A DNA stretch of 36,784 nucleotides from Elusimicrobiota bacterium (GCA_043827405.1 JBDRPD010000040.1:1-36784), one strand, 5' to 3'. Shown: positions 5,158-32,164, counted from the stretch's first letter. Translations and numbers: made by a program. The notes: generated by a model from the sequence alone, not told the origin.

Positions 5158-5163
5158 AGCTTT

Positions 5164-12416: not shown

Positions 12417-12647
12417 AGGATTTTCTCCCATGCCTTTGCATACGATTCAGGAGGCGATTCGGTTCCCGAAAATAAAAAGCCTCTATCGCGAATTTGAGAG
12501 CCACGCTCTATGGCTTGAGCATGATCCCGGCTATCGCACCGTGAAAAATGACCCCAGCCATGCTTTCATGCTCCGGCTGCGCGGAAAAAATCGCCGCTTT
12601 GGGCCTAAAATCACCCTAAAATTGCGCTTCTGGGAAGGGGTGGAATT

Positions 12648-12674
12648 TGGTAGAATCAGCTTTCAATATTTGAA
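12648..12674 (+). promoter_or_regulatory. Putative pfa-ole operon promoter: extended -10 TGgTAGAAT plus downstream inverted repeat TTCAA-tat-TTGAA
   Basis: TG-g-TAGAAT at 12648-12656 and a palindrome at 12662-12674, near the expected transcription start. Confidence 0.5.
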
Positions 12675-12687
12675 TTTTTCGTAGATT

Positions 12688-14325
12688 ATGCCCCTCTGCC
12701 TTACCCCTCCTAAGAAGTGCTTGGGTACTTGGCGTTCCGGCGCGGATGAGCCCGCGGCCGATGCCGAGGGGCTTCGCGCCGCCCTCATAAAGCTCAACGA
12801 ACCCTTCTATGTTCTGGATACGGACCATGGCCCGGCCGCAGCGGCCGGCGGCGCCGCCGTTTTCGGGCCCGGCGGCGAGGGTCTCCCCGTGCTGGCCCAT
12901 GCTCCGGCGGGGCTTCCCGCGGCTCTCGGCGACCCCGCTTTTCTCCGCGACCACGGCCTGCGCTTCGCCTATGTTTCCGGCGCGATGGCCAACGGCATCG
13001 GCTCAGCCGAAATCTGCGAGGCGCTGGCGCGGGAAGGGATGCTCGGCTTTTTCGGCGCCGCCGGCCTGACGCCCGCCGTCGTCGAGCAGGCGATCGACCG
13101 CTTGCAGAGCTCGCTCGACGGGCTGCCGTACGGCTGCAACCTCATCCACAGTCCCAACGAGCCCGATCTCGAGGACGCGATTACCGAGCTCTACATCCGC
13201 AAGGGCGTGCGGCGGGTGGAGGCTTCGGCTTTCATGGGGCTGACCCCGGCGATCGTGCGCTATCGCGCGCAGGGTCTGCGGCGAGCGGACGACGGTTCGA
13301 TTACGGCGCCCAACCGCGTCGTCGCCAAGGTTTCGCGGGTCGAGGTCGCCGAGAAGTTCTTCAGCCCGGCGCCCGCGGGCATGCTGCGCGAGCTCGCCGC
13401 CGCCGGCCGCATCACGGCGCAGGAGGTCGAGCTCGCGGCGCATATCCCGGTGGCGCAGGACCTTACCGTCGAGGCCGATTCGGGCGGCCATACCGACGGG
13501 CGTCCGTTAGTGACCTTGCTGCCGACCATGATTTCACTGCGCGACCGCCTGCAGGAACGCTTCGGCTACGCCGATGCCCTGCGCGTGGGCGCGGCCGGCG
13601 GCATCTCGACGCCGCTTGCGGCCGCTTCGGCGTTCGCTATGGGAGCGGCCTATGTGCTGCTCGGCTCGGCGCATCAGGCCTGCGTGGAATCCGGCAGCTG
13701 CGATGCGGTGCGCAGGATGCTGGCCGAATGCGGCCAGGCCGACACGGCCACGGCGCCGGCGGCCGATATGTTCGAGCTGGGCGCCAAGGTGCAGGTTCTC
13801 AAGCGGGGAACCATGTTCGCGATGCGTGCCGCCAAGCTCTACGAGCTTTACCATGCCTGCGCCGGACTCGATGCGATTCCGGCCGCCGAGCGCAGCCTGC
13901 TGGAGCGGCAGGTGTTTCTGGCCCCGCTTGAGGACATCTGGACGCAGACGCGCGCTTTCTTCGCCGTGCGCGATCCGGCGCAGATCGTCCGCGCCGAGGC
14001 CGACCCCAAGCACCGCATGGCGCTGGTCTTCCGCTGGTATCTGGGGCAGGCTTCCCGCTGGGCCAATGCCGGCGAGCCGTCGCGGCGCATCGACTACCAG
14101 ATCTGGTGCGGCCCGGCGATGGGCGCCTTCAACGAATGGGCCAAGGGGACGTTTCTGGAGCGCCCGGAGAACCGCCGCATCGTCGATGTCGCCAAGAACA
14201 TTTTATTCGGCGCCGCGCTGCAGTCGCGGCTTAACATCCTGCGGAGCCAAGGCGTCGTTTTTCCGCGCGCCGCCGCGACCATCCGTCCGGTCGCGTCTTC
14301 CGTGCTAGAGGAGTACTTCCGGTGA
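12688..14325 (+). CDS. pfaD: PfaD-family PUFA/polyketide enoyl-ACP reductase (FMN-dependent TIM barrel)
   Basis: GAMANGI, NLIHSPNEP, VEASAF, AKVSRVEVA, EADSGGHTD, APAADMFE, VQVLKRGTMF, DYQIWCGPAMGAFNEW. Confidence 0.95.
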   Translation: MPLCLTPPKKCLGTWRSGADEPAADAEGLRAALIKLNEPFYVLDTDHGPAAAAGGAAVFGPGGEGLPVLAHAPAGLPAALGDPAFLRDHGLRFAYVSGAMANGIGSAEICEALAREGMLGFFGAAGLTPAVVEQAIDRLQSSLDGLPYGCNLIHSPNEPDLEDAITELYIRKGVRRVEASAFMGLTPAIVRYRAQGLRRADDGSITAPNRVVAKVSRVEVAEKFFSPAPAGMLRELAAAGRITAQEVELAAHIPVAQDLTVEADSGGHTDGRPLVTLLPTMISLRDRLQERFGYADALRVGAAGGISTPLAAASAFAMGAAYVLLGSAHQACVESGSCDAVRRMLAECGQADTATAPAADMFELGAKVQVLKRGTMFAMRAAKLYELYHACAGLDAIPAAERSLLERQVFLAPLEDIWTQTRAFFAVRDPAQIVRAEADPKHRMALVFRWYLGQASRWANAGEPSRRIDYQIWCGPAMGAFNEWAKGTFLERPENRRIVDVAKNILFGAALQSRLNILRSQGVVFPRAAATIRPVASSVLEEYFR

Positions 14326-17300
14326 AGAAAGAAAAAACAGCCCAGCCCCTGGCGATTATCGGCATCGCCTGCCGATTTCCCAAAGCCGACGATCTCGAGG
14401 CGTACTGGAAAAATATAAAAAACGGCGTCGACGCCATTGTTGATATTCCCGCGACGCACTGGAACCCGGAAGAGTACTTCAACGCCGACCCCAAGAAGCC
14501 GGATATGACCTATGGCCGCCGCGGCGGCTTCCTGTCCCCGGCCGATTTCAATCCGATGGAGTTCGGGATGGCGCCCCGGGATATCGAAGCCACGGACACC
14601 TCGCAGCTGCTGGGGATGATGGCCGCGCAGGACGCGCTCAAGGATGCCGGCTACGGTCCGCAAAGAGATTTCGACCACGGCCGCACCAGCGTGATCCTCG
14701 GCGTGACCGGCGCGCTCGAGCTCGTTATTCCGCTCGGCGCGCGTCTCGGCCATCCCCTCTGGCGCAAGGCCATGCGGGAGGCGGGAATCGAGGAGGCCGC
14801 CGTCGAAGACGCCGTCGGCCGCATCGCCGACTCCTATGTCGGCTGGCAGGAGAACTCTTTTCCGGGCCTGCTCGGCAATGTGGTCGCGGGCCGCATCGCC
14901 AACCGGCTCGACCTGCACGGGACCAACTGCGTGGTCGACGCCGCCTGCGCCAGTTCGCTCTCGGCCATTCACTTGGCCGGTCTGGAACTGGAGAGCGGCC
15001 GCTCCGATATGGTCGTGACCGGCGGGGTGGATACCTTCAACGATATCTTCATGTTCACGTGCTTTTCCAAGACGCCGGCGCTCTCGCCCACGGGCGACTG
15101 CCGGTCCTTCGACGCTTCCGGCGACGGCACCATCCTCGGGGAGGGGCTGGGCATGGTGGTTCTCAAGCGGCTCGCCGACGCGCAGCGGGACGGCGACCGG
15201 ATCCATGCCGTGATCAAGGGCGTCGGCTCGTCGAGCGACGGCAAGGGCGCCGCGATCTATGAGCCGAGCGCGCGCGGCCAGTCGCGGGCGCTCAAGAACG
15301 CCTACCGGCTTTCCGGGGTGTCGCCGGATACGGTGGAGCTCGTTGAGGCGCACGGCACCGGGACCAAGGTCGGCGACGCCACCGAGGTGTCGGCGCTTAC
15401 CGAGGTGTACCGCGAATACCGGCGTGAGGGCACCTGGTGCGCGCTGGGTTCGGTCAAGTCCATGATCGGACATACCAAGGCGGCGTCCGGCTCCGCCGGC
15501 CTGATCAAGGCGGTGCTGGCGCTCAAAAACAAGACTTTGCCGCCGACGCTTAAGGTTACGAATCCCAACGAGAAGGTGGCCCCGAGAAGTACTCCGTTCT
15601 ATGTCAATACGTGCAAGCGTCCATGGCTGCCGCGCGCGGAGCATCCGCGCCGCGCCGCGCTGAGCGCTCTCGGTTTCGGCGGCAGCAATTTTCACTGCGT
15701 GGTTGAAGAGTACGACGCGAAGAAAGCGGCGGCGGACTGGGACGGCGACGCGCAGATCGTCGCCTTCTCGGGGCGCGACGCGGCCGGAATCGACGCGGCG
15801 CTCGGCGCCTTCCCGGCGGACCTTCCCTGGCCGCAGCTGCGCGCGCGCGCGGCCGAGTCCCGCGCGGACTTCGCTCCGCAGGCTCCCTGCCGCTTGCTGG
15901 CCGTTCTCGAGAAAGACGGCGACGCCGGAGCGCTGCTGGCGCAGGCGCGGATGCTGCTCAAGAAGGATCCGTCCGCCAAAAGCTGGAGCGCCCCCAACGG
16001 CATCTATTTCGGTTCGGGAGATGCTCCGGGAGGTCTCGGCCTGCTGTTTTCCGGACAGGGCTCGCAGTATACGGGCATGCTCCGCGATCTGGCCTGCCAG
16101 TTCCCGCGGATGCTCGATACCCTCGCCGAGGCCAACGACGCGGTGGACTGCGGCGGCGCCGAGCGGCTGTCGGACTTGATCTATCCGCCGCCGACGTTTA
16201 ATGACGAGGATAAAGCGCGCGACGATAAAGCCCTGCGCGCGACCCAGGTCGCCCAGCCGGCGATCGGGGCGGTAAGCCTGGGCGCCTTGCGCGTGCTTGA
16301 GGATTTCGCCGTTTGCCCGCAGGCCGCGGCCGGCCACAGCTACGGCGAGCTGAGCGCGCTGTGCGCGGCCGGACGCTTCGACGCTTCGACGCTCTTTAAG
16401 CTGTCCGAGCTGCGCGGCCGCCTGATGGGCGAGGGCAAAGGAGATTTGGGTTCCATGCTCGCGGTGCAGGCTCCTATCGACCAGGTGGAAGCGGCCGTCG
16501 AGAAAGGCGGCTTCGACCTGGTGCTTGCCAATAAGAACGCTCCCAGCCAAGTGGTGCTCTCCGGCGCGACCGGGGAAATCGAGCGGGCCGAGAAATCCCT
16601 CGCGGAGCAGGGGCTGCGCTGCAAGCGCCTTCCCGTGGCCGCGGCTTTTCACAGCAAGCTGGTCGCCGGCGCGCGTGAGCCGTTTGCGCAGGCGCTCAAG
16701 GACGTGGCCTTCAAGAAGTCGGCCTTCCCCGTCTTCGCCAACACCAGCGCCGAGGCTTATCCGGACAGCGCCGCCAAGTCGCGTCTGCTGCTGGCGGGAC
16801 AGCTGGCCTGCCCGGTGGAGTTCGTGCGCGAGATAGAGAACCTGTACGCTTCCGGCGTCCGCACCTTTCTGGAGGTGGGGCCGGGAGCGCGGTTGACGGG
16901 ATTGGTCAAGGCGATCCTTGAAGGCAAGGAGTTCGCCGCCGCCGCTGTGGACGCTTCCGGCGGGAAGCGCTCCGGTATCGCCGATCTGGCCCGGGCGCTG
17001 GCGCAGCTGGCCGCGCGCGGGCATGCCGTGGCTCTGGGCAGGTGGGATGAGGGCTTCGCGCTGCCGGAAAGGAACGCGGGCGGCAAGGCCGCGTTCACCG
17101 TTCCCCTGTCGGCCGCGAACTATCGCGCGCCGCGCAAGGCCAAGCCGCCGACCAGCCGGCCGCGTCCCGCGGCCGCTCAGCCGGCTTCCGCTGCGCCGCT
17201 GACCTTCGTTTCCGCTCCCGCCGCCGCACCGGCGCAGGGCGCTCTGCTGCGTACGCAGGAGCACCTAATTGCGCTGCAGCGGATTCAGGAGCAGACCGCG

Positions 17301-20300
17301 CTGCTGCATGCCAAGTTCCTCGAGGGACAGGAAGCGGCGCTGAAGACTATTCAGACTTTGATCAGCGGGGAGCAGGCGGCGCCGGCCGGGACGCCTATTC
17401 CTGCCGCCGCGCCGGCGGTTCCGGCGGCAGTATCCGTGCCGGTTCCCGCCGCCGCGCCCGCCGTCGGCAGCGGCCAAGTCGAAGCCGTCCTGCTCGCCGT
17501 AGTGTCCGAGAAGACCGGCTATCCCGTCGAGATGCTGAACCTCGATATGGGGCTGGACTCCGATCTCGGCATCGATTCAATCAAGCGCGTGGAGATCCTG
17601 TCCTCTTTGCAGGAGAAGCTGCCCGGAGCGCCGACGGTCAAGCCGGACCAGCTGGGCACGCTGCGGACCTTGCGGCAGGTAGTTGATTTTTTGACTTCCG
17701 GTATGAGCGTCGCCGCGCCGCCCGCCGTCGACCGCGGCCGGGTCGAATTCGTCCTGCTCTCCGTGGTGTCCGAGAAGACCGGCTATCCCGCCGAGATGCT
17801 GAACCTCGATATGGGGCTGGACTCCGATTTGGGCATCGATTCAATCAAGCGGGTGGAGATCTTGTCCTCGCTGCAGGAGAAGCTGCCCGGAGCGCCGGCG
17901 GTCAAGCCGGACCAGCTGGGCACGCTGCGGACCTTGCGGCAGGTCGTTGATTTTTTGACTTCCGGTATGAGCGCCGCCGCGCCGGCCGCCGCGGCCGGCG
18001 GTGTCGACTTGGCCGCCGCCGAGAAGGTTCTGCTGGAGGTCGTCGCCGAGAAAACCGGCTATCCGGCGGAGATGCTCAACCTCGATATGGGGCTGGACTC
18101 GGACCTCGGCATTGATTCGATAAAGCGGGTTGAGATTCTTTCAGCCATGCAGGAAAAGCTTCCCGGAGCGCCGGCCGTCAGGCCGGACCAGCTGGGCACG
18201 CTGCGCACGCTGCGTCAGGTGGCCGAGTTCCTGAGCTCGGGAGCGCCCGCATCCGCTCCGCCGCCGGCGCCGACGGCCGAAAAAGGACGTGCGCCCGCGC
18301 GGCCCGATCGGCCGCTGCTCCGGCAGATACTGCAGGTCGTTGAGGCGGAATCCGAGCGCCCCGAATTGACGCTCGCCGCCGGCGCGGAGATTTGGCTGAC
18401 CGAAGACGGGTCGGAGCTGTCGCGCCGTGTCGGGGAGAATCTTTCCGCGCGCGGTTTTGCGGTCAAGCTGCTGGCGCGCGCCGATTGGAGCTCGGTTTCC
18501 TTCCCCGAGCGGCTCGGCGGGCTGGTGATTGTCGCGCCATGCGGCGCGGGCGATGATTTCGTCAAGGATTCGCTGTTCCTGCTGCAGCAGGCCGGCCCCG
18601 CGCTGCGCGCGGCGGGCAAGAGCGGTACGGCCCTGTTCGCCGCCGTTACGCGTTTTGACGGCGCCTGCGGCCTGCGGGAGATGCCCGGGGATGCGGACTT
18701 CGCGGCCGGCGCACTAGCCGGCCTGGCCAAGACCGCCGGACGGGAATGGCCGGAAGTCGTGTGCCGCGTGCTCGACGTTGATCGGAATTTTACGGACGCC
18801 GCCGACGCGGCGCGTCAGCTGGCCGGCGAACTGCTGCTCACCGGGCCGGCCGAAGTAGGAATATCACCGGCCGGCAGGACCGCGCTGCGGCTCGAGCGGG
18901 CCAAGCTGGCCGCGGGCAAGCATATCCCGTTGTCGCCCGATGACGTGGTGCTGGTGACCGGCGGCGCGCGGGGCGTGACGGCGGAGACGGCCTGCGCTCT
19001 GGCCAAGGCTTTCAAGCCGACGCTGGTGCTGCTTGGACGCAGCGGCGCGCCGACGCCGGAGCCCGACTGGCTGGCGGGGCTGGAGAGCGAGGGAGATATC
19101 AAGAAAACGCTGTTGAGCCGAGCGGGAAGCAAGCTCGCCCCGAAAGAGCTGGAGGAGCGCTATCGCGATCTCGCGTCCAACCGGGAGATGCTGCGCAACA
19201 TCGCCCGCATGGAACGTTCCGGCGCGACCGTGCTCTACCGTTCGCTTGATGTGCGCGATCCTGACGCCGTGCGTGCGCTGGTCAAGGAGCTGGAAGGCGG
19301 TGAAGGCCGGGTGCGCGGCCTGATCCACGGCGCCGGCGTTCTGGCGGACCGCAGCATCGAGGACAAAACCGAAGAGCAGTTCGTCCGGGTTTACGGGACC
19401 AAGATCGCCGGCCTGCGCGCGCTGTGGCGGGCGCTGGATCCCGGAGCGCTCAAAATCCTCGTCCTGTTCTCCTCGACGACGGCGCGCCTGGGCCGCAGCG
19501 GCCAAGTCGATTATGCGATGGCCAACGAAGCGCTCAACGTCTTCGCGCGCCGGGAAGCCCGCCGTCTGCCGGGCTGCCGGGTGCTGTCGGTCAACTGGGG
19601 CCCGTGGGAGGGCGGCATGGTCACGCCGTCTTTGCGCAAGGTGTTTGCACAGGAAGGCGTGGGCCTGATCCCGCTCGATAAAGGCGCTGATTATCTGATC
19701 GCTGAGCTGCGCGCGGGTTCGGGTCCGACCGAGACCGTAATTTTGGGCGACGGCCCGGCCGCCGCCGGTTCCGGCAAGGAGCAGCCGGAGCCGCCGCTGA
19801 CGGTGGTTTTTGAGCGCCTGCTCGATGTCGCCGGTCACCCGTTCTTGAAGTCGCACGTGATCGACGGCCGCGCGGTTCTCCCGATGGCCTTGATCGTCGA
19901 ATGGCTCGCGCACGGCGCCCTGCACGGCAACCCCGGACGGGTTTTCCACGGCTTCGAGGAGCTGCGCATAATCAAGGGCGTACGCCTGGCTTGCGGAGAG
20001 AAGGTCAATATCCGCGTGCTGGCGGGCAAAGCCGCGCGCGCGGACGGCGTATACCGCGTCCCGGTCGAGCTGCGAAGCGTGCCTGCGGCGCCGGGCGCCG
20101 ACGTGGTGCACGCGCGCGGGAGCATCATCCTGGGCGACCGGCCGCTGAAAGCGGAGCCCCCGATGCTCGAGATCCGGCCGCAGAAGTTTCCCGGCCCGAC
20201 GCGCCGCGTTTACGACGACTACCTCTTCCATGGCGAGGATCTCCGGGGCATCCGCGAGATCGAGGGCTGCTCGCCGGAGGGCATCGTCTCGAGCGCGGCG

Positions 20301-20666
20301 ACGGCGCCCGCGCCCGCGCGCTGGATCAAAAAGCCGCTGCGCGGCGGGTGGATCGCCGATCCGCTCGCGCTCGACGCCGCCTTCCAGCTGATGATCGTCT
20401 GGAGCTTCGAGAAGCACGGAGCGGGGTCGCTGCCGTGCTACGCCGGCCGCTACCGCCAGTTCCGCTCGTTCCCGGCCGACGGCGTCCGCATCGTCATCCA
20501 GGTGACGAAAAACGGCAACTACCGGGCGCTGGCCGATATCGAGTTCATCGGCACGGACGGCAAGCTTGTCGCGCGTCTCGAGGGCTACGAGTGCGTGGTT
20601 GATGAGTCGCTCAATGAGGCGTTCAAGCGCCGCGCCCTCTCGGTGGCGGCGGCCGAGCCGGCCTAG
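14322..20666 (+). CDS. pfaA: PfaA-like iterative type I PUFA synthase subunit (KS-MAT-ACPx3-KR-PKS-type DH)
   Basis: KS: DAACASS / EAHGTGT / GHTKAA and WQENSFPGLLGNVVAGRIANR. MAT: GHSYG / AAFHS. Three ACPs: DLGIDSIKRVEIL. KR: TGGARGVT / DYAMAN. DH: HPFLKSHVIDGRAVLP. GTG start overlaps the pfaD TGA. Confidence 0.93.
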   Translation: MKKEKTAQPLAIIGIACRFPKADDLEAYWKNIKNGVDAIVDIPATHWNPEEYFNADPKKPDMTYGRRGGFLSPADFNPMEFGMAPRDIEATDTSQLLGMMAAQDALKDAGYGPQRDFDHGRTSVILGVTGALELVIPLGARLGHPLWRKAMREAGIEEAAVEDAVGRIADSYVGWQENSFPGLLGNVVAGRIANRLDLHGTNCVVDAACASSLSAIHLAGLELESGRSDMVVTGGVDTFNDIFMFTCFSKTPALSPTGDCRSFDASGDGTILGEGLGMVVLKRLADAQRDGDRIHAVIKGVGSSSDGKGAAIYEPSARGQSRALKNAYRLSGVSPDTVELVEAHGTGTKVGDATEVSALTEVYREYRREGTWCALGSVKSMIGHTKAASGSAGLIKAVLALKNKTLPPTLKVTNPNEKVAPRSTPFYVNTCKRPWLPRAEHPRRAALSALGFGGSNFHCVVEEYDAKKAAADWDGDAQIVAFSGRDAAGIDAALGAFPADLPWPQLRARAAESRADFAPQAPCRLLAVLEKDGDAGALLAQARMLLKKDPSAKSWSAPNGIYFGSGDAPGGLGLLFSGQGSQYTGMLRDLACQFPRMLDTLAEANDAVDCGGAERLSDLIYPPPTFNDEDKARDDKALRATQVAQPAIGAVSLGALRVLEDFAVCPQAAAGHSYGELSALCAAGRFDASTLFKLSELRGRLMGEGKGDLGSMLAVQAPIDQVEAAVEKGGFDLVLANKNAPSQVVLSGATGEIERAEKSLAEQGLRCKRLPVAAAFHSKLVAGAREPFAQALKDVAFKKSAFPVFANTSAEAYPDSAAKSRLLLAGQLACPVEFVREIENLYASGVRTFLEVGPGARLTGLVKAILEGKEFAAAAVDASGGKRSGIADLARALAQLAARGHAVALGRWDEGFALPERNAGGKAAFTVPLSAANYRAPRKAKPPTSRPRPAAAQPASAAPLTFVSAPAAAPAQGALLRTQEHLIALQRIQEQTALLHAKFLEGQEAALKTIQTLISGEQAAPAGTPIPAAAPAVPAAVSVPVPAAAPAVGSGQVEAVLLAVVSEKTGYPVEMLNLDMGLDSDLGIDSIKRVEILSSLQEKLPGAPTVKPDQLGTLRTLRQVVDFLTSGMSVAAPPAVDRGRVEFVLLSVVSEKTGYPAEMLNLDMGLDSDLGIDSIKRVEILSSLQEKLPGAPAVKPDQLGTLRTLRQVVDFLTSGMSAAAPAAAAGGVDLAAAEKVLLEVVAEKTGYPAEMLNLDMGLDSDLGIDSIKRVEILSAMQEKLPGAPAVRPDQLGTLRTLRQVAEFLSSGAPASAPPPAPTAEKGRAPARPDRPLLRQILQVVEAESERPELTLAAGAEIWLTEDGSELSRRVGENLSARGFAVKLLARADWSSVSFPERLGGLVIVAPCGAGDDFVKDSLFLLQQAGPALRAAGKSGTALFAAVTRFDGACGLREMPGDADFAAGALAGLAKTAGREWPEVVCRVLDVDRNFTDAADAARQLAGELLLTGPAEVGISPAGRTALRLERAKLAAGKHIPLSPDDVVLVTGGARGVTAETACALAKAFKPTLVLLGRSGAPTPEPDWLAGLESEGDIKKTLLSRAGSKLAPKELEERYRDLASNREMLRNIARMERSGATVLYRSLDVRDPDAVRALVKELEGGEGRVRGLIHGAGVLADRSIEDKTEEQFVRVYGTKIAGLRALWRALDPGALKILVLFSSTTARLGRSGQVDYAMANEALNVFARREARRLPGCRVLSVNWGPWEGGMVTPSLRKVFAQEGVGLIPLDKGADYLIAELRAGSGPTETVILGDGPAAAGSGKEQPEPPLTVVFERLLDVAGHPFLKSHVIDGRAVLPMALIVEWLAHGALHGNPGRVFHGFEELRIIKGVRLACGEKVNIRVLAGKAARADGVYRVPVELRSVPAAPGADVVHARGSIILGDRPLKAEPPMLEIRPQKFPGPTRRVYDDYLFHGEDLRGIREIEGCSPEGIVSSAATAPAPARWIKKPLRGGWIADPLALDAAFQLMIVWSFEKHGAGSLPCYAGRYRQFRSFPADGVRIVIQVTKNGNYRALADIEFIGTDGKLVARLEGYECVVDESLNEAFKRRALSVAAAEPA
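17505..18235 (+). repeat. Three tandem ACP-domain DNA repeats (units start at about 17505, 17769 and 18045)
   Basis: Repeated (t/g)ccgagaa(g/a)accggctatcc...ctcgatatggggctggactc...ccggaccagctgggcacgctgcg, at spacings of 264 and 276 bp. Confidence 0.95.
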
Positions 20667-20675
20667 TACAAGGTT

Positions 20676-23600: not shown

Positions 23601-26600
23601 GGCGGGGCCGATGCCGGAGAGATTCGCGGCCGTCTGGCCCGGCTGAAGGCGCTGGCGCGCCGGCATGAAGGCTGCGGCATCGAGGCGCTCGCCCGCCGCT
23701 GGCATGACGGCGGAGAAGACGCGGGCGCGCGCGCCTGTGCGATCGTGGCGCGTGAGACGGGAGAGCTGCTGCGGCTCAGCTCCGGGGCCGAGCGCGCCCT
23801 GGCGGAGACTCCTGATCGCCCGATTGAAGAAGCGCGCGTCTACTACCGGCCCGCGCCGCTCGGCCCCGAAGCGCGTACGGCTTTTCTGTTCCCGGGCTCC
23901 GGCAATCACTTTCCCGATATGGGCCGCGCGCTGTCGGCGCACTGGCCCGCGGCCCTGCGCCGGCAGGACGAAGAGAACGAGCGCCTGCGCAGCCAGTATG
24001 TGCCGGATATTTTCTGGGAAGAAGGGGCGGATATCCGCCGCGATACCAAGGCGCTGATCTTCGGCCAGGTGTCGCTGGGGACTTTTGTCAGCGACATCGT
24101 CCGCGGGCTGGGCGTACGGCCCGACGCGGCGATCGGCTACAGCTTGGGGGAATCCGCGGCGTTGTTCGCCCTGCGCGTGTGGCGTGACCGCGACGAGATG
24201 CTGCGCCGGATGGACGAGTCCACTTTGTTTACTACCGACCTGGCGGGCCCCTGCGACGCGGCGCGGCGCCGGTGGAAGCTTCCCAACGGCGTGCCGGTCG
24301 ACTGGAGCATCGGCGTGCTGGACATCCCCGCGGCGCGCGTGCGCCGGGCGCTCGAGAACCGGCAGCGGGTCTACCTGCTGATCGTGAACACGCCGCAGGA
24401 GTGCGTCATCGGCGGCGACCGCTCCGAGGTCAAGGAGGTCGTCAGCGAGCTCGGCGGACGCTTTATCGAGCTCGACGGCGTCACCACGGTCCACTGCGAG
24501 GCGGCTGAGCCGGTCCGCGAAGCGTATCTGCAACTGCATCTGTTCAAAACCAAGCCGCCCGAGGGCGTGCGCTTCTACAGCGGCTGCTGGGGCAGCGACT
24601 ACGACGTAACACCCCGGCGCGCCGCGGAGTCCGTGCTCGAGCAGGCGCTTTACGGCGTGGACTACCCGAAGGTGATCGAAGCGGCGTATCGCGACGGCGT
24701 GCGCGTTTTCCTGGAGCTGGGACCGGGAGCGTCGTGCACCCGCATGGTCGGGCGCATCCTTGACGGCCGCCCGCATTTGGCGGCCGCGGCCTGCTCGGTG
24801 GAGGAACCGGGGCCGACCGCGATTCTGAAGATGCTCGGGCGGCTCGCGGCCGACCGCATCGCTTTCGATCTCGGCGCGCTGTACGGAGCCGGACATCCGC
24901 CGGCCGCGCAGGATATGCAGCCGGCGGTGACCTTGCAGGTCGGCGGGGACAGCTTCGATATCCCGTCGCCGCCCAAGCCCCGCCGGACTTCGCCCCGCGT
25001 TTCCGTTCCTGTTCCCGCACTTGTGCGGCCGGCCGTGCCTGCCGCGGCCGCGGCGCCCCTTTCCGCGGCGCGGCCGGCGGCGGAGGTCCGAGATCCGTTT
25101 CTGGCGCGGATGCACGCCGCGGATGCGGCCAAGACCCGGGCCCATGAGACTTTTTTGCGCATCTCGGCCGGGGTGACCGCGGCCATGGCGCAGGCCATCG
25201 CGTTTCAGCAGCGCTTGGGCGGCGGGGAAGTTTTGCCCGCTCCGCCCGCCGTGCCGCCCGTATTTTTGGACCGCGAGCAGTGCCTGGAATTCGCCGTCGG
25301 CCGCATCGGTGCGGCCTTGGGCCCGCGGTTCGCGCCGGTGGACGCCCATCCGACCCGGGTGCGCCTGCCGGACGAGCCCTTGATGCTGGTCGACCGCATC
25401 CTGGAGGTGGAAGGCGGGCCCTGCGCCATGACCTCCGGGCGCGTCGTCACCGAGCACGACGTCCATGACGGCGCCTGGTACCTCGACGGCGGCCGCATCC
25501 CCACCTGCATCGCGGTGGAGGCGGGACAGGCCGATCTGTTTTTGTCCGGCTATCTCGGAATTGATTTCCAGACCAAGGGCCTCGCGGTATACCGCCTGCT
25601 CGATGCGGTGGTGACGTTTCACCGCGGACTGCCGCGGCCGGGAGAGACGATCCGCTACGACATCCGCATCGAGCGCTTCTTCCGGCAGGGCGAAACCCAT
25701 CTGTTCAAGTTCAGCTTCGACGGCACCGTCGACGGGGAGCCGCTGCTGACGATGCGCGACGGCTGCGCCGGATTCTTTACCGCGGCGGAGCTCGCGGCCG
25801 GCAAAGGCATCGTGCATACCGAGCTCGATCGCCGCCGGCTCCCCGGCAAAAAGCCCGCGGACTGGACGGACCTCGTCGCGCTGAGCGAAGAAAGCTATGA
25901 CCGCGATAAGATCGACGCGCTGCGCGGCGGCGATCTCGCCGCCTGCTTCGGACCGGAGTTCGCCGGGCTGGAACTGCGCGACCCCGAGACTCTTCCCGGC
26001 GCCGCCGGCGCGCGGATGCGGCTGATCGACCGGGTGCTTGCGCTCGAGCCCGGCGGCGGCCGCTACGGCCTGGGCAAGATCACCGCGGAAGCGGACATCC
26101 GCCCCGACGACTGGTTTTTGACCTGCCATTTCGTCGACGACAAGGTGATGCCCGGGACGCTGATGTATGAATGCTGCCTGCATACTCTGCGCGTCTACTT
26201 GCTGCGCCTGGGCTGGATCGGAGAACAGGGGCGCTGCGTGCATGAGCCGGTTCCGGGAGTTTCCAGCCGGCTGAAATGCCGCGGCCAGGTCATCGAGTCG
26301 ACTAAAATCGCGGCCTACGAGATCACGCTCAAGGAGCTCGGCTACACGGAGGACGGCACGCCCTTCGCCGTCGCCGACGCGCTGATGTACGCGGACGGCA
26401 AAGCGGTGGTGGAAATTACCGATATGTCGGTGCGCCTGACCGGGCTGACGAAAGACGGCCTGCGGTCGCTGTGGAATCGGCGGCCGGCGGCGCCGGCTGC
26501 CGCGGCGGAAGAAAAGAAACCGGTCTACGACAACGCGAGCATACTCGCTTTTGCGGTCGGCAAGCCCTCCGAGGCTTTCGGGAAGCCGTACCGCGTATTC

Positions 26601-27593
26601 GATGCCGACCGCGTGATCGCCCGGCTGCCCGGACCGCCGTACAAGTTCCTCGACCGCATCACCGAGGTGCGGGGCGAGCCGTGGAAGCTGAAGGCCGGGG
26701 CGTCGGCCGAGGCGCAGTACGATGTGCCGCCGCAGGAATGGTATTTCGCCGCCAACCGCCAGCCGGAGATGCCGTTCGCCGTGCTGCTCGAGGTCGCGCT
26801 GCAGCCTTGCGGCTGGCTCGCGGCCTATCTCGGCTCGGCGCTGACCAGCGACGTGGACCTGTCGTTTCGCAACCTCGGCGGGTCGGCGGTGCGGCACCGC
26901 GCGGTCGGGCCGGACAGCGGAACCCTGACGACGCGGGTGACCATGACCCAGGTCTCTCACTCGGGCGGCATGATCATCCAGCACTATGATTTCGCGGTGA
27001 CCAGCGGCGGCCGGCCGGTCTATACGGGCAAGACCTATTTCGGCTTTTTTTCCAAGAGCGCGCTCGCCGATCAGGTCGGCATACGGGAGGCGAAGCTCTA
27101 TCAGCCGACCGCGGAGGAAGAGGCGCGGGGCGTGAGCTTTTGGGTATCCGACAAGGCGCCGATGCCGGGCCGGAAGTTCCGCATGGTGGACTATATCGAC
27201 CTCTTCGTCCCCGACGGCGGGCCTCAGGGGCTGGGCTTTTTGCGCGGCAGCATCGACGTCGATCCCGAGGCGTGGTTCTTTAAGGCGCATTTCCATCAGG
27301 ACTCGGTATGGCCCGGTTCGCTCGGCCTTGAGTCCTTCCTGCAGGTGCTCAAAGTCTATGCGGCCGACCGCTGGAACGCCGCGGCGGACGCGGTGTTCGA
27401 AAACGTCGCGGTCGAGGAGAAGCATGAGTGGACGTACCGCGGGCAGATCCTGCCGACCGACAAGCGCGTGAGCGTGCAGGCGGTGGTGACCGCCGTCGAC
27501 GACAAGAACCGGCTGCTGCATGCCGCGGGGCACCTCTCGGTCGACGGCCGCGTTATCTACGCGCTGCAGGACTTCACGCTGAGGCTGCGGTGA
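20676..27593 (+). CDS. Fused PfaB/PfaC-like subunit (KS-CLF-AT-four FabA-type hotdog DH/pseudo-DH domains)
   Basis: KS1: DAACASS / ECHATGT / GHLLTG. KS2 has Cys replaced by Glu (QSEESSG), i.e. a chain-length factor. AT: GYSLGES. DH motifs CHFVDDKVMPGTLMYE and AHFHQDSVWPGSLGLE, each preceded by a pseudo-DH. Confidence 0.92.
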   Translation: MKFEQPIAIVGLGGIFPCALTLDAFWEMIAAGRDAVREVPRGRWPLPAATVYDPEIAAPDKVNSTRGCFIEDFELDRDGLALDSKFLDVLDPMFHIGLHAAREALRGDALKEIDRRRVGVVLGNIALPSERSSRMAVDLLGRTFEEKLLGRRSEDPETANGAHRIPRSAASKVASINRYVAGLPAGVIAKALGLGGGCFTLDAACASSLYALKLACDELLAGRADAMLSGGMSRPDCFYTQMGFSQLRAVSPSGLCSPFDARGDGLVVGEGAGMFLLKRHADAVRDGDEIHALIRGVGLSNDVEGNLLAPSSEGQLRAMRQAYQEAEWDPRSLDLIECHATGTLVGDAVEFASLSRLWGERAPGPEKCVLGSVKSNVGHLLTGAGAAGLMKVLLALRHKVLPPTANFSRQGSKIDLDHSPFEVLRQARDWNPRAEGKLRRAAVSGFGFGGINAHVLIEEAPVAEGLPVAARDTVRWLADKVAPKIHIGGEAPPPPPANPVPVAVVGMGARFGPWKNLRAVQERMLGGGEKHLPRLPRWWGAENSAWFKARGLNREAFRGYYIDSIDAPLGRFRIPPNELKEMLPQQLLMLLTADEALRDAGWKKEQRLDAGAFIGIGLDLNTTNFHFRWMIQDKAPEWSRRLGGGPQGEALEEWIKVLRDAAAPALTANRTMGALGGIVASRLAREFRFGGSCFTVQSEESSGLRALETAVRALQNGDLNAALVGAVDLAGDLRSMIGTHSGRPYSPTGSVRPFDAEADGTMGGEGAAAVVLKRLDDAIRDGDRIYSVINGVGSASEGGADGMIPEKGAYTAAAARAYAEAGVERAAIGYVGAHGSGSPAEDRMEAAALAEVFGAQGRCVLGSAKADVGHTGAASGLASFVKASLCLYQEILPPLRGHRHAIEELRTGVRMRRPATPRYWLRDRVDGPRRAGVSAFSVDGNCVHVVLAAHERAADERGADKLRPLGDREEALFIAGGADAGEIRGRLARLKALARRHEGCGIEALARRWHDGGEDAGARACAIVARETGELLRLSSGAERALAETPDRPIEEARVYYRPAPLGPEARTAFLFPGSGNHFPDMGRALSAHWPAALRRQDEENERLRSQYVPDIFWEEGADIRRDTKALIFGQVSLGTFVSDIVRGLGVRPDAAIGYSLGESAALFALRVWRDRDEMLRRMDESTLFTTDLAGPCDAARRRWKLPNGVPVDWSIGVLDIPAARVRRALENRQRVYLLIVNTPQECVIGGDRSEVKEVVSELGGRFIELDGVTTVHCEAAEPVREAYLQLHLFKTKPPEGVRFYSGCWGSDYDVTPRRAAESVLEQALYGVDYPKVIEAAYRDGVRVFLELGPGASCTRMVGRILDGRPHLAAAACSVEEPGPTAILKMLGRLAADRIAFDLGALYGAGHPPAAQDMQPAVTLQVGGDSFDIPSPPKPRRTSPRVSVPVPALVRPAVPAAAAAPLSAARPAAEVRDPFLARMHAADAAKTRAHETFLRISAGVTAAMAQAIAFQQRLGGGEVLPAPPAVPPVFLDREQCLEFAVGRIGAALGPRFAPVDAHPTRVRLPDEPLMLVDRILEVEGGPCAMTSGRVVTEHDVHDGAWYLDGGRIPTCIAVEAGQADLFLSGYLGIDFQTKGLAVYRLLDAVVTFHRGLPRPGETIRYDIRIERFFRQGETHLFKFSFDGTVDGEPLLTMRDGCAGFFTAAELAAGKGIVHTELDRRRLPGKKPADWTDLVALSEESYDRDKIDALRGGDLAACFGPEFAGLELRDPETLPGAAGARMRLIDRVLALEPGGGRYGLGKITAEADIRPDDWFLTCHFVDDKVMPGTLMYECCLHTLRVYLLRLGWIGEQGRCVHEPVPGVSSRLKCRGQVIESTKIAAYEITLKELGYTEDGTPFAVADALMYADGKAVVEITDMSVRLTGLTKDGLRSLWNRRPAAPAAAAEEKKPVYDNASILAFAVGKPSEAFGKPYRVFDADRVIARLPGPPYKFLDRITEVRGEPWKLKAGASAEAQYDVPPQEWYFAANRQPEMPFAVLLEVALQPCGWLAAYLGSALTSDVDLSFRNLGGSAVRHRAVGPDSGTLTTRVTMTQVSHSGGMIIQHYDFAVTSGGRPVYTGKTYFGFFSKSALADQVGIREAKLYQPTAEEEARGVSFWVSDKAPMPGRKFRMVDYIDLFVPDGGPQGLGFLRGSIDVDPEAWFFKAHFHQDSVWPGSLGLESFLQVLKVYAADRWNAAADAVFENVAVEEKHEWTYRGQILPTDKRVSVQAVVTAVDDKNRLLHAAGHLSVDGRVIYALQDFTLRLR

Positions 27594-28630
27594 GGTACTC
27601 CAAGGTCCATCTCGACGCCGCGGGCTATGAGCTCGGCCCGGTGGTCGTTACCTCCGCCGAGCTCGAAGAGCGCTTGCAGCCGCTCTATCGGGCGCTGCAT
27701 ATATCCGCCGGTCAGCTGGAGAGCCTGACGGGGATTCGCGAGCGCCGCTGGTGGGAAGAGGGACACCGCTTATCCGACGGAGCCGTCGCGGCGGCACGCA
27801 AGGCTTTGGCGCGTTCCGCGGTGCGGCCGCCTGATCTGGAGGCGCTCATCTACGCCGGGGTTTGCCGCGAGCAGTTCGAGCCGGCTACCGCCTGCCGGGT
27901 CGCGGCCGAGCTCGGGGTAAGCGGCGGGGCGCATATCTATGACATCTCCAACGCCTGCCTCGGCGTCATCAACGGCATTCTGGATATCGCCAACCGCATC
28001 GAGCTCGGCCAGATCCGCGCCGGGATGGTCGTTTCCTGCGAGTCCGCGCGGGAGATCAACGACATTATGATCAAGAAGATGCTGGAGAATCCCGGCATGG
28101 ATATATTCAAGTACTCGCTGGCGACTTTGACCGGCGGTTCGGGAGCGGTCGCGGTGATTCTCACCGACGGCTCGTTCGCCGGGGGCCGCCGCCGCCTTCT
28201 CGGCGGTGTGGCGCAGGCGGCGCCCGAACATCATCGGCTGTGCAAGTGGGGGATCGATAAGAAGCAGCCGGCGGCGCTGTCGGAGTACATGTCGACCGAC
28301 TCGGTTTCCGTTCTCGAGAACGGCGTACGGCTCGGCACCGCGACCTGGAAGGCGCTGCTGAAGAACCTGGAGTGGACCGCGCAGTCGGTGGACAAGGTCA
28401 TCTGCCATCAGGTCGGCTCGGGACACAAGGACTCGATCCTCAAAACGCTGGGCCTGGCGCCGGAAAAGGATTTTTCGACCTTTGAATATCTGGGCAATAT
28501 CGGCACCGTCTCCCTGCCGCTGACGGCCGCTCTCGCCGAGGAGCGCGAGTTTCTCGCGCCCGGAGATAAAGTGGCCTTCATGGGCATCGGCAGCGGGCTC
28601 AACTGCATGATGCTGGGATGGGAGTGGTGA
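27590..28630 (+). CDS. oleA: OleA thiolase-fold acyl condensing enzyme (FabH-like)
   Basis: LTGIRERRWW, FEPATA (Glu), ISNACLG (Cys), ICHQVG (His), GNIGTVSLP (Asn), GIGSGLNC. The probable GTG start at 27590 overlaps the upstream TGA. Confidence 0.92.
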   Translation: MRYSKVHLDAAGYELGPVVVTSAELEERLQPLYRALHISAGQLESLTGIRERRWWEEGHRLSDGAVAAARKALARSAVRPPDLEALIYAGVCREQFEPATACRVAAELGVSGGAHIYDISNACLGVINGILDIANRIELGQIRAGMVVSCESAREINDIMIKKMLENPGMDIFKYSLATLTGGSGAVAVILTDGSFAGGRRRLLGGVAQAAPEHHRLCKWGIDKKQPAALSEYMSTDSVSVLENGVRLGTATWKALLKNLEWTAQSVDKVICHQVGSGHKDSILKTLGLAPEKDFSTFEYLGNIGTVSLPLTAALAEEREFLAPGDKVAFMGIGSGLNCMMLGWEW

Positions 28631-29517
28631 GCCTTTCTCCATTTGCGCCGCACTGGTTCGACCGCGGCGGCGGCGCGCGGATGCACTACGTCGATGAAGG
28701 GCAGGGCGCGCCGGTAGTGATGGTGCACGGCAACCCGACCTGGTCGTTCTATTACCGGGAGCTGGCCGGAGCGCTGAAAGATTCCTGCCGGGTTATCGTG
28801 CCGGACCATGTCGGCTGCGGCCTGTCGGATAAGCCGCAGGATTATCCGTACACGCTCAAGCAGCGGGTCGATGACCTTGAGGCTTTGCTCGAGCACCTCG
28901 GCATCGTCAAGGACATCACTCTTATCGTGCACGATTGGGGCGGAATGATCGGCATGGCCTGGGCGTCGCGCCATCCTGAGCGGGTGCGCCGCCTCGTTAT
29001 TCTCAATACCGGAGCCTTCCACCTGCCGGAAGATAAGCCGTTTCCGTGGCAGCTATGGCTGTGCCGGACGCCGCTCGGCCCGCTGCTGGTCCGCGGCTGC
29101 AATATGTTTTGTCTGGCCGCGGCGCGGCTGTGCGCCGTCCGGCGCCCGCTGTCAGCCGCGGCGCGCGCCGGCTATTTGGCGCCGTATGACTCCTGGGCGA
29201 ACCGCGTCGCGGTTTTGCGTTTTGTCCAGGATATCCCGCTGACGGAGAGCGACGCGGCGTATGCGATCGTGACCGGAGTAGAGCAGGGGCTGCATCGCTT
29301 CCGCGGCGTTCCGACGCTTATCTGCTGGGGCCTGCGTGATTTTATTTTCGATGCGAGCTTTCTGCGCGTGTGGCGCAAGCACTTGCCCGGTGCCGAGGTT
29401 CACACCTTTGCGGACGGCGGCCATTATATCCTCGAGGACGCCGGCCCGGAGATCATCTCCCTGGTCGGGGATTTTATGCGTCGATATCCTGTGGACAAAG
29501 CCGCGCCGGCGCCGTGA
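28627..29517 (+). CDS. oleB: OleB beta-lactone decarboxylase (haloalkane dehalogenase-like alpha/beta hydrolase)
   Basis: MHYVDEG, HGNPTWSFYYR, PDHVGCGLSDKP, HDWGG nucleophile elbow, FVQDIPL, GHYILED; lies between oleA and oleC. Confidence 0.92.
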   Translation: MSLSPFAPHWFDRGGGARMHYVDEGQGAPVVMVHGNPTWSFYYRELAGALKDSCRVIVPDHVGCGLSDKPQDYPYTLKQRVDDLEALLEHLGIVKDITLIVHDWGGMIGMAWASRHPERVRRLVILNTGAFHLPEDKPFPWQLWLCRTPLGPLLVRGCNMFCLAAARLCAVRRPLSAAARAGYLAPYDSWANRVAVLRFVQDIPLTESDAAYAIVTGVEQGLHRFRGVPTLICWGLRDFIFDASFLRVWRKHLPGAEVHTFADGGHYILEDAGPEIISLVGDFMRRYPVDKAAPAP

Positions 29518-31151
29518 AGAACGTCAACGTCGCCGTTCACCTGCCGCGTATGGCCAAGCGCCAGCCCGACACGCTCGCCATCGCCTGGCCCGTCGCCGGC
29601 GGCGGACATGCATCCTGGACTTACAGCGAACTCAATCGCGAGAGCAACCGTGCGGCCCGCGGCCTGGAAGGCTGCGGCATCCGGCAGGGCATGCGCACCG
29701 TGCTTATGGTTAAGCCGGGACCCGAATTTTTCGCTCTCACCTTTGCCCTGTTCAAGATCGGAGCGGTGCCGGTTCTGGTCGATCCCGGCCTGGGCCGCAA
29801 AAACCTTAAGCGCTGCCTGGCGGAGGCGGAACCCGAAGCTTTTATCGGCATTCCCAAGGCCCATGCCGCCCGGATTTTGTTCGGGTGGGCGCGGCGGTCC
29901 CTGCGCCGGCTCGTTACGGTCGGGGGGCCGCGGCTGTGGGGCGGCGCCGACTACGAAGCGCTCAAGAGCCCGGACGCCTCCGCTTTTCAGAACGCCACCC
30001 GTACCGGCGATGCGGCGGCGATCCTTTTTACCAGCGGCGGCACCGGTGCGCCGAAGGGCGCTGTTTACACCCACGGTAATTTCGCCGCGCAGGTCGACAT
30101 CCTGCGCGAGATCTACGGCATCGAGCCCGGCGAGGTCGACCTGCCGACCTTCCCGCTGTTCGCGCTGTTCGCGCCGGCGCTCGGCATGTCGGCGGTGATC
30201 CCGGATATGGATTTTACGCGTCCCGCCGCGGTGGATCCGGCGAAGATCGTCGCCGCGATCCGCAAGTTCAACGTCACCCAGATGTTCGGCTCACCGGCGC
30301 TTATCCGCCGGGTGGGCGCCTATCTGGATGACGAGGATATTCAGCTGACCACGGTGCGGCGGGTGATCTCGGCGGGAGCGCCGGTTCCGGCGGCGACGCT
30401 GGCGCGCTTTACCCGGCACTTGCCGAAAGACGCCGAGGTGCATACCCCCTACGGCGCCACCGAGGCTTTACCCGTCGCCACCATCGGCAGCCGCGAGATT
30501 CTCGCCGGCACCTGCGCCGCGACGGCCAAAGGCGCCGGGGTTTGCGTCGGCCGTCCCGTCGGCGGGGTGCGGGTGCGTATTATCCGGATCACCGATCGCT
30601 CCATCCCGGTATGGTCGGACGATTGGGAAGCGCCGCCGGGGGAGATCGGAGAGATCGTGGTCGCGGGGCCGGTGGTGACCGGCAGCTATCACAACCGTGC
30701 ACGGGCGAACCGGCGCTCCAAGATCCCCGCCCCTGAGCGCGGCGGTTTTTATCACCGCATGGGTGATCTCGGCTATTTTGACCATGACGGCCGCCTGTGG
30801 TTCTGCGGGCGCAAGAGCCATCGTGTGCCGGCGCCCGACCGGCTCTACTACACGATCCCCTGCGAGGGCGTGTTCAACGAGCACCCCCAGGTCTACCGCA
30901 CCGCGCTCGTCGGCGTGCGGCGCGGGCGCATCTATGAGCCCGTTCTCTGCGTCGAGCGGGAGCACAGCGGCGAAGAGGTGCGCCTCGGCACGCTGCGCGA
31001 CGAGCTGCTCGCTTTGGGCGCCGCACACGAGCATACCCGGGACATTAAGAAAATTCTGTTCCACGACGCCTTTCCCGTCGATATCCGCCACAACGCCAAA
31101 ATTTTCCGCGAGCAGCTGGCGGTTTGGGCCGAGGACAAGCTGCGGTGGTAA
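29514..31151 (+). CDS. oleC: OleC beta-lactone synthetase (ANL/AMP-binding superfamily)
   Basis: FTSGGTGAPKG, DLPTFPLFALF, TPYGATE, HRMGDLG, LWFCGRKSHRV, FPVDIRHNAKIFRE. Probable GTG start at 29514. Confidence 0.93.
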   Translation: MKNVNVAVHLPRMAKRQPDTLAIAWPVAGGGHASWTYSELNRESNRAARGLEGCGIRQGMRTVLMVKPGPEFFALTFALFKIGAVPVLVDPGLGRKNLKRCLAEAEPEAFIGIPKAHAARILFGWARRSLRRLVTVGGPRLWGGADYEALKSPDASAFQNATRTGDAAAILFTSGGTGAPKGAVYTHGNFAAQVDILREIYGIEPGEVDLPTFPLFALFAPALGMSAVIPDMDFTRPAAVDPAKIVAAIRKFNVTQMFGSPALIRRVGAYLDDEDIQLTTVRRVISAGAPVPAATLARFTRHLPKDAEVHTPYGATEALPVATIGSREILAGTCAATAKGAGVCVGRPVGGVRVRIIRITDRSIPVWSDDWEAPPGEIGEIVVAGPVVTGSYHNRARANRRSKIPAPERGGFYHRMGDLGYFDHDGRLWFCGRKSHRVPAPDRLYYTIPCEGVFNEHPQVYRTALVGVRRGRIYEPVLCVEREHSGEEVRLGTLRDELLALGAAHEHTRDIKKILFHDAFPVDIRHNAKIFREQLAVWAEDKLRW

Positions 31152-32164
31152 AAGCCCTGGTCACGGGCGGCGGCGGGTTTCTCGGGAGCGCGGTATGCCG
31201 GGCGCTGCGGCACAAGGGCGTCGCGGTCCGCAGCTTCTCGCGCGGCGCTTATCCCGAGCTCGAGCAGGCCGGGGTCGAGACGGTGCGGGGAGATCTCACC
31301 GACCCGGCGGCCGTGCATGCCGCCGCCGCCGGCTGCGATATCGTCTTTCATGTCGCCGCCAAGGCGGGCGTTTGGGGGCGCGGCGAGGACTTCCGCCGCG
31401 TCAATGTCGAAGGGACCCGCAGCGTGCTCGAAGCCTGCCGCGCGCACGGCATTCGCCGGCTGGTCTATACCAGTTCGCCGAGCGTCGTCTTTGACGGCCG
31501 CGATATCGAAGGGGGGGATGAGTCCCTGCCGTATGCCGAGCATTACCATGCGCACTACCCGGCGACCAAGGCGGAGGCGGAGCGCTTGGTGCTCCGCGCC
31601 AACGGCCGGGATATCGCGACGGTGTCCCTGCGGCCGCATCTCATCTGGGGGCCCGGCGACAATCATCTGGTTCCCCGCATTATCGCCCGGCGCAGATCCG
31701 GCGCTTTGCGGCGGATCACCGGCCCGGTGAAGAAGGTGGACTCCGTCTATATCGACAACGCGGCGGCGGCGCATATTCTTGCCGCCGAGAAGCTGGCGCC
31801 GGGCGCCCCGAGCGCCGGCAAGGTCTATTTTATATCCAACGATGAGCCGCTGCCGGTATGGGAGCTCATCGACCGCATCCTGATGGCGGCGCATCTGCCG
31901 CCGGTCGAGAAGACCGTATCGCCCGGGCTCGCCTATGCGGCGGGAGCGGGGCTGGAGGCCGTCTACCGTCTGCTGCGTCTGGGCGGCGAGCCGCGCATGA
32001 CGCGCTTTTTGGCCCGCGAGCTCTCCACCGCGCACTGGTTCGATATCTCCGCCGCCCGGCGGGATCTCGGCTACCGGCCCGCGGTCTCCATTCAGGAAGG
32101 CCTGCGGCGCCTCGAAGCCGCGCTAGCCGCGGATGATCTCGCGCAGGGCGCGCAGGCCCTCTAG
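31145..32164 (+). CDS. oleD: OleD 2-alkyl-3-oxoalkanoate reductase (extended SDR, 3-beta-HSD-like)
   Basis: VTGGGGFLG, FHVAAKAGVWG, YTSSPSVV, YPATK (YxxxK), LRPHLIWGPGD, HWFDISAARRDLGY. Probable GTG start at 31145. Confidence 0.93.
   Translation: MVKALVTGGGGFLGSAVCRALRHKGVAVRSFSRGAYPELEQAGVETVRGDLTDPAAVHAAAAGCDIVFHVAAKAGVWGRGEDFRRVNVEGTRSVLEACRAHGIRRLVYTSSPSVVFDGRDIEGGDESLPYAEHYHAHYPATKAEAERLVLRANGRDIATVSLRPHLIWGPGDNHLVPRIIARRRSGALRRITGPVKKVDSVYIDNAAAAHILAAEKLAPGAPSAGKVYFISNDEPLPVWELIDRILMAAHLPPVEKTVSPGLAYAAGAGLEAVYRLLRLGGEPRMTRFLARELSTAHWFDISAARRDLGYRPAVSIQEGLRRLEAALAADDLAQGAQAL

Follow-up and report, generated by a model that had tools for sequence, protein, structure and literature searches.

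Gene content of the pfa-ole locus

The 36,784-nt stretch of DNA analysed here (the window) is one whole contig of a 4.33-Mb genome assembled in 108 contigs and 98% complete. Between 12688 and 32164 it carries seven genes in the order pfaD-pfaA-pfaBC-oleA-oleB-oleC-oleD, all on the + strand and together covering ~19.5 kb. The features are listed below, with the source of each assignment in brackets.

12648..12656, + strand: candidate extended -10 promoter element TGGTAGAAT, 31 nt ahead of the pfaD start (picked by eye only)
12688..14325, + strand: pfaD, flavin enoyl reductase, 545 aa (TIGR02814, PF03060, PF21607)
14322..20666, + strand: pfaA, KS-MAT-ACP3-KR-DH, 2114 aa (TIGR02813, Pfam domains, KS tree)
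17487..18233, + strand: three tandem ACP domains in pfaA, at 17487-17693, 17754-17957 and 18027-18233 (PF00550, three GIDSIK motifs)
20676..27593, + strand: fused pfaBC, KS-CLF-AT plus four FabA-like stretches, 2305 aa (Pfam, NCBIfam)
27590..28630, + strand: oleA, head-to-head condensing enzyme, 346 aa (NF006720, alignment to PDB 3ROW)
28627..29517, + strand: oleB, alpha/beta hydrolase, 296 aa, with an alternative ATG at 28618 (PF00561)
29514..31151, + strand: oleC, AMP-forming beta-lactone synthetase, 545 aa (NF006754)
31145..32164, + strand: oleD, NAD(P)H 2-alkyl-3-oxoalkanoate reductase, 339 aa (NF042422 and NF042423, best matches but below cut-off)

In a reading-frame check all seven frames are open, each with one terminal stop. 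Five of the six junctions overlap, four of them sharing the 4 nt GTGA and oleC/oleD sharing 7 nt; pfaA/pfaBC is the sole non-overlapping junction, with a spacing of 9 nt. These coordinates agree with the five overlaps and one 9-bp gap of the original prediction, and its seven co-oriented genes with intact catalytic motifs are borne out by the frames and by the residues described below. The start codons of the ole genes were picked from the overlaps and from upstream purine runs. Because the genes overlap, the seven are likely to form one operon, read as a single transcript. A consensus promoter scan returned no + strand promoter at 12648..12656, the position of the candidate -10 element. Weak promoter-like sites are slightly more frequent than expected by chance (6 against 1.9 +/- 1.4, all scoring 9 of 12), three of these being intragenic on the + strand. 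A pattern scan for terminators gave about as many sites as chance predicts (17 against 14.8 +/- 4.6).

The upstream flank holds ettA, a MacAB-type exporter, TPR and GDSL proteins, a GIY-YIG gene, gpsA and an ORF6N gene, and the downstream flank holds aroQ, aroB and a B12 radical SAM gene. The last of these (33950-35632) was considered as a tailoring enzyme, on a ladderane-like idea, and was rejected, being separated from the cluster by aroQ and aroB and having many paralogues in the genome. At an identity of at least 42% it had no match in any of 80 GTDB loci or 20 regions from relatives, which cover ~4-14 kb downstream where the contigs reach.

Protein families and catalytic residues

Four of the proteins score well above the cut-offs of their family models: PfaD with TIGR02814 (638 bits, cut-off 449), PfaA with TIGR02813 (1503 bits, cut-off 1010), OleA with NF006720 (483 bits, cut-off 285) and OleC with NF006754 (734 bits, cut-off 478). 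The Ole-specific models for OleC (NF045786, 672 of 900; NF045785, 633 of 850) are its next best matches after NF006754, and those for OleD (NF042422, 445 of 580; NF042423, 432 of 580) are the best for that protein; these models far outrank unrelated families, yet all four fall short of their cut-offs. No OleB-specific model was among the family matches of OleB, the best being a haloalkane dehalogenase (170 of 241), and the protein is a putative beta-lactone decarboxylase by position and homology.

The motif residues, whose catalytic roles in Pfa and Ole proteins we take as given, are present throughout. PfaA has the KS Cys/His/His set, the MAT motif GHSYG and the serines of three ACP GIDSIK motifs. 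PfaBC has a second KS Cys/His/His set, a CLF with Glu in place of Cys, the AT motif GYSLG and two FabA-type His/Glu pairs. These columns are constant in the aligned PfaBC homologues: the KS Cys and both His in 45/45, the AT Ser in 47/47, both DH His/Glu pairs in 49/49, and Glu or Asp at the CLF position in 43/43. OleB has HDWGG and a C-terminal GHY. Glu97, Cys123, His273 and Asn303 of OleA line up with the matching motifs of the OleA structure PDB 3ROW (E 5e-55, 332 residues aligned), which is presumably the enzyme from Xanthomonas campestris. The family search found no AGPAT domain in PfaBC, whose C-terminal end is a FabA-like domain; within the cluster, plsC was not found and pfaT is absent. 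Taken together, the family and motif evidence is far beyond chance.

Placement of the host

The host is likely a member of the Elusimicrobiota, on the following evidence. Its RecA is 76% identical to that of a genome labelled Elusimicrobia, against 53-67% for four other comparison genomes. Its 16S gene is 84% identical over 667 nt to that of the same genome, against 74-77% for three others, the fifth giving a 44-nt match only. A named Elusimicrobia locus (L077) groups with relatives from the host's own family with support of 98-100 in both the OleA and the concatenated trees described below. Finally, the genome carries a Type R-like synthase, and Type R is listed for Elusimicrobium minutum (PMC3098273). 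The marker panel is small, being the five comparison genomes reached via named loci, and RpoB could not be matched in the one labelled Elusimicrobia. The earlier guess of a poorly cultured host lineage is thus likely right.

Comparison with known Pfa and Ole systems

The closest counterpart is Geobacter bemidjiensis Bem, which according to a review produces the C31:9 polyene hentriacontanonaene and has pfaD,A,B,C,oleA-D,pfaE as a tandem array (PMC4882568). Gene order, the fused pfaBC and the tandem ole genes are all alike here (PMC4882568, PMC3098273). The same arrangement underlies Shulse and Allen's (2011) secondary lipid synthase of Type I, described by them as a pfaBC fusion found in Deltaproteobacteria and one planctomycete and proposed to feed olefin synthesis (PMC3098273). 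The pfaBC fusion, the tandem ACPs in pfaA and the pfaD enoyl reductase of Type I are present in the window, and the proximal KS sits with Geobacter and planctomycete KS in a tree built without the paper's own reference strains. Protein identities are 54-68% to Geobacter sp. AOG1 (PfaD 61%, OleD 65%) and about 54-71% to Geobacter overall, with OleA mostly 64-69% identical to its Geobacteraceae homologues. There are two differences. Most Geobacteraceae loci inspected by eye carry a PPTase-like ORF after oleD, in one locus confirmed as a HetI-like PPTase, whereas none follows oleD here; and this host belongs to another phylum and has no detected FAS II core genes. Shulse and Allen describe the adjacent PPTase, with its P0 motif, as present 'most often', which makes it usual and not obligatory (PMC3098273). 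The cluster would work like the Type I pfa-ole system and, on the sequence features examined, is a member of it, lacking only this usual adjacent PPTase.

Other systems are less similar. The Type A pfaEABCD and oleABCD genes of Shewanella and Photobacterium, which yield C31:9 and EPA, encode a like enzyme set with like predicted chemistry, and in P. profundum SS9 the pfa and ole operons are adjacent (PMC6463001). However, Type A keeps pfaB and pfaC as two genes, places pfaD last, carries 4-6 ACPs and makes EPA, whereas here pfaBC is fused, pfaD comes first and there are three ACPs. The OleABCD system of Xanthomonas campestris is alike in OleA fold and catalytic motifs, but it draws on FAS II-derived saturated or monounsaturated chains and has no Pfa synthase. 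The myxobacterial Type L pfa1-3 also has its ER gene first and its third gene fused; its Pfa3, however, is reported to carry a C-terminal AGPAT domain directing PUFA into phospholipids (PMC4882568), and none was found here.

Linked pfa and ole loci were held from the outset to be known elsewhere, and they are: in G. bemidjiensis, in a cluster type classified in 2011 (PMC3098273) and in dozens of genomes. The original prediction had tied the novelty of the cluster to whether an identical one was already characterised in close relatives. This is nearly the case, since the gene order is known in the C31:9 producer G. bemidjiensis, but that organism belongs to another phylum and is no close relative. 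Layout and chemistry are thus already known, with no new chemistry and no new architecture; what is new is the host. A literature search, with most subscription journals outside its scope, found no report of a pfa-ole cluster in Elusimicrobiota.

Distribution of the cluster

Searching GTDB genomes with OleA gave 273 confirmed relatives, of which the best 80 were analysed; these come chiefly from Geobacteraceae and other Desulfuromonadia, then from Planctomycetota. Among the best 80 of 273, 71 loci extend 1 kb or more upstream, and in 69 of these the 3' end of pfaBC lies ahead of oleA; 40 of the 80 carry pfaA, pfaBC and the complete ole set within 21 kb. Contig ends or inserts break the set in the remaining 40; pfaD lies outside the 21-kb flank. 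In all three named genomes that were read completely (Geobacter sp. AOG1, a planctomycete and one labelled Alcaligenaceae) the seven genes are in order, at 46-69% identity.

These loci also bear on how far the pathway runs. OleA alone is reported to give a ketone and OleC a beta-lactone (PMC6463001), and no OleB-specific model matched here, so that a polyunsaturated ketone or beta-lactone might be the end product, with no olefin formed. But oleB, oleC and oleD are intact, OleB keeps both HDWGG and its C-terminal His motif, and an oleB homologue follows oleA in 80/80 of the best 80 of 273 loci. We consider an end product of this kind extremely improbable.

The host's order was sampled in 41 genomes, its own included. 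Matches to oleA were found in 28 and to pfaD in 25; both genes occur in 24/41, neither in 12/41 and one alone in 5/41, four of these five being <90% complete. The pfa and ole halves travel together in the order; kin are not independent, so these counts do not amount to a statistical test. Regions around oleA were taken from 20 of the 27 oleA-positive relatives in the order: pfaBC precedes oleA in 19, six genes are present in 16, and all seven are in order in 11. A second family has an extra DUF4384 protein between pfaA and pfaBC, and its pfaBC and oleA are often split by unrelated genes, up to 12 kb; tight packing is therefore not universal. The layout is nevertheless found again in dozens of genomes from Geobacteraceae, planctomycetes and Elusimicrobiota.

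Trees and origin

In a KS tree of 22 rows, the PfaA KS falls in a clade of 14 rows with 100/100 support, together with Geobacter sp. AOG1, the planctomycete and the order's own sequences. Six plasmid-borne pfa-like KS and the Type R KS fall outside this clade; two outgroup rows are long branches. An OleA tree (59 rows) and a tree of DH, OleA and OleB combined (48 rows) were built with 36 of the 80 named loci, hand-picked for length and spread; G010 and rows below the coverage limits were left out. None of the trees includes G. bemidjiensis or a Type A or B sequence, and the KS tree is also without Types J and K.

The order's sequences fall into two groups in both the OleA and the combined tree. 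Two separate acquisitions were considered on this account and rejected, the tree that joins the order's sequences lying 9.2 log-likelihood units higher (p-AU 0.637). A single origin in the order is not rejected and may apply; the trees are unrooted and silent on the direction of transfer. Recent transfer or mobility was likewise rejected: the GC of the genes (0.64-0.69) is that of the window, and flanking genes vary between relatives. A search of 72,556 plasmids gave no OleA match at E 1e-30.

Priming of the synthase and fatty-acid background

No PPTase was found in the window and no pfaE follows oleD. A Geobacter PfaE query had 0 matches in this genome; it matched 11/41 genomes of the order. 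The PPTases found elsewhere in the genome are an AcpS-type gene and one on contig C12, next to the Type R-like synthase, and by eye the latter lacks hRxhLS, given as the motif of PUFA-type PPTases (PMC3098273). The cluster might thus be silent, with no cognate PPTase left to prime its ACPs. Against this, its 19.5 kb are free of frameshifts and stops and keep all catalytic residues. The clusters of the relatives are intact, although the C12 PPTase had no match in the regions of 20/20 relatives and most relatives have no PfaE match. Moreover, PPTases unlinked to pfa genes are known, according to the review, in myxobacteria and Moritella (PMC4882568), and with the genome at 98% completeness a gene may be absent from the assembly. 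A silent cluster is, in our judgement, highly improbable.

The fatty-acid genes of the host are unusual. No standalone FabF, FabH or FabD was found in the 98%-complete genome, and canonical FabD was detected in 0/41 genomes of the order at E 1e-70. Genes named from their sequences as acpP, fabG, plsX and fabZ-like were seen, and a motif scan, a weak method, gave no convincing match to FabI, FabK, FabV or FabL. The Type R-like synthase occurs in 15/16 genomes of the host's family, in 6/6 of a third family and in 0/18 of the second family; a FabF-like gene is present in 18/18 second-family genomes. Three genomes (G013, G018 and G022; 97, 97 and 91% complete) have a Type R match, but no oleA, pfaD or FabF-like match. 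Because these three, each at least 91% complete, have Type R and neither pfa-ole nor a FabF-like gene, the Type R enzyme is likely to make the core fatty acids, with the pfa-ole cluster as a predicted accessory. PfaD was also considered as the reductase of Type R and rejected as a general solution, since G007, G008, G012, G013, G018 and G022, all at least 90% complete, have Type R and no pfaD or oleA.

In a cell that lacks FAS II the Pfa synthase might instead chiefly feed membrane fatty acids, the ole genes being a side branch. The FabD, FabF and FabH results would fit such a role, as would the AT serine, intact in all 47 homologues. However, the spread of the Type R-like synthase through two families of the order would offer another source of acyl chains, and the three genomes that have it and no pfa-ole genes make the cluster look dispensable. 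The cluster has neither the AGPAT domain nor plsC, and some strict anaerobes are described as yielding C31:9 and no long-chain PUFA (PMC4882568). We regard a chief role in membrane supply as very unlikely. Since the PfaBC AT serine is intact, the synthase may still release some free or lipid-bound PUFA.

Predicted pathway and product

The pfa-ole line would work as follows. A PPTase encoded elsewhere, likely the C12 one, would prime the three PfaA ACPs in trans. The MAT would load malonyl, and the chain would be extended by the PfaA KS and the PfaBC KS/CLF, with the KR reducing it and the dehydratases dehydrating and isomerising it; PfaD would reduce chosen double bonds to give a chain of about 16:4. 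Shewanella OleA is reported to couple the Pfa and Ole pathways in vivo without an acyl-CoA synthetase, and the Ole enzymes are described as acting in the sequence OleA, OleD, OleC, OleB (PMC6463001). By analogy with those in-vivo data, OleA here would likely draw the chain straight from the ACPs and join two of them, whereupon OleD would reduce the keto group, OleC close the beta-lactone and OleB remove CO2. The predicted outcome has 31 carbons and 4+4+1 double bonds.

That the locus is a dedicated line for a polyunsaturated hydrocarbon, as first proposed, is well supported by homology, and its main product is quite probably a polyunsaturated head-to-head olefin. Chain length and unsaturation were said to be unreadable from sequence. 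They are indeed not directly readable, but the close relationship of this locus to the Geobacter system makes C31:9 a strong prior expectation, and we put C31:9 itself, as a prediction, at slightly better than an even chance.

The same chemistry could lead to another molecule, either because OleA couples one chain from Pfa with one from the Type R-like synthase or because the synthase makes chains of another length, so that the polyene is not C31:9. The lack of standalone FabH, FabD and FabF makes the acyl pool unusual, and the proteins are only about 54-71% identical to those of Geobacter. Yet the OleA of PUFA producers is reported to condense Pfa-derived 16:4 only, although FAS II is present (PMC6463001), C31:9 comes from both the Shewanella and the Geobacter systems, and the catalytic columns are invariant in homologues. 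A polyene other than C31:9 is, on balance, unlikely.

A more elaborate proposal joins several of these elements: the host would have lost FAS II and carry two megasynthases, the pfa-ole line would borrow the Type R PPTase, OleA would join Pfa and Type R chains into an undescribed asymmetric polyunsaturated hydrocarbon, and the cluster would have been inherited across the whole Elusimicrobiota order. If true, it would make this order an unrecognised source of long polyenes; as a whole we judge it to be unlikely.

With C31:9 as the favoured product, the Geobacter-type gene set for this polyene reaches a third phylum and, going by oleA (28/41), some two thirds of the genomes sampled in one order. 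This widens the range of possible environmental sources of long polyunsaturated hydrocarbons and makes these compounds weaker markers of Shewanella or Geobacter. At 19.5 kb, the compact unit would also be a handy construct for learning what Type I synthases make.

The use of such a product to the cell may lie in membrane properties or in cold or oxidative stress, which is speculation in the literature too. The genome also encodes a heme-copper oxidase subunit, which suggests that the host meets oxygen; this is no test of an antioxidant role, but it fits one.

A second megasynthase in the host genome

Besides the cluster's own synthase genes, the host genome (G000) encodes a Type R-like synthase on contig C12, followed by a phosphopantetheinyl transferase (PPTase) and a carboxyltransferase.

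G000:C12:25236-33887 (equivalent to L097:7237-15888), Type R-like synthase, 2883 aa, KS-AT-KS-like-ACP4-KR-DH
G000:C12:33845-36179, PPTase and carboxyltransferase

Because FabF, FabH and FabD were not found in G000, this synthase is likely the core fatty acid synthase of the host. No enoyl reductase was identified for it.

Cluster organization in other genomes

Relatives from f2, the second family within the host's order, carry an additional gene between pfaA and pfaBC. The window's cluster lacks it. The encoded protein of 334-353 aa matches DUF4384 in all five cases scanned (one of them below the cut-off), and its N-terminus appears lipoprotein-like by eye.

L119:3026-4030, DUF4384-match protein
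L120:13988-15049, DUF4384-match protein
L123:2850-3881, DUF4384-match protein
L125:2986-4002, DUF4384-match protein
L136:642-1676, DUF4384-match protein

G003, a relative from the host's own family, encodes a PPTase resembling PfaE (G003:C205:12926-13612; 42% against its Geobacter counterpart). This gene is on the strand opposite to pfaD and ~1.2 kb upstream of it, so at least one member has retained it next to the cluster. Among Geobacteraceae, pfaBC and oleA lie no more than a few bases apart in most loci, while 1-8 kb of inserted DNA is common at the oleB-oleC junction (L020, L024, L028, L046, L049, L056 and L063, among others).

Genes flanking the cluster

5098-7602, TPR protein with a GDSL/SGNH domain
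8876-10039, second SGNH protein
11913-12431, minus strand, ORF6N-domain gene, divergent from pfaD
33950-35632, plus strand, radical SAM gene (B12-binding), two genes downstream of the cluster
35614-36783, frame resembling a membrane protein, truncated at the contig end

No connection with the cluster was seen for the two SGNH-type proteins or the membrane-protein-like frame. The radical SAM gene, whose true start probably lies later than the ORF start, is one of many paralogues in the host genome and showed no co-location with the cluster in relatives. A homologue of the ORF6N gene (55% identical) stands just upstream of pfaD in one of the 20 relatives' regions (G017).

Elsewhere in the host genome, a full-length match to heme-copper oxidase subunit I (500 bits; G000:C25:42223-43554) suggests that the organism respires using oxygen or a related acceptor. 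On contig C30, one protein (L099:942-1973), a conceivable counterpart of PfaT, joins a response-regulator receiver domain to a thioesterase of the 4HBT family.
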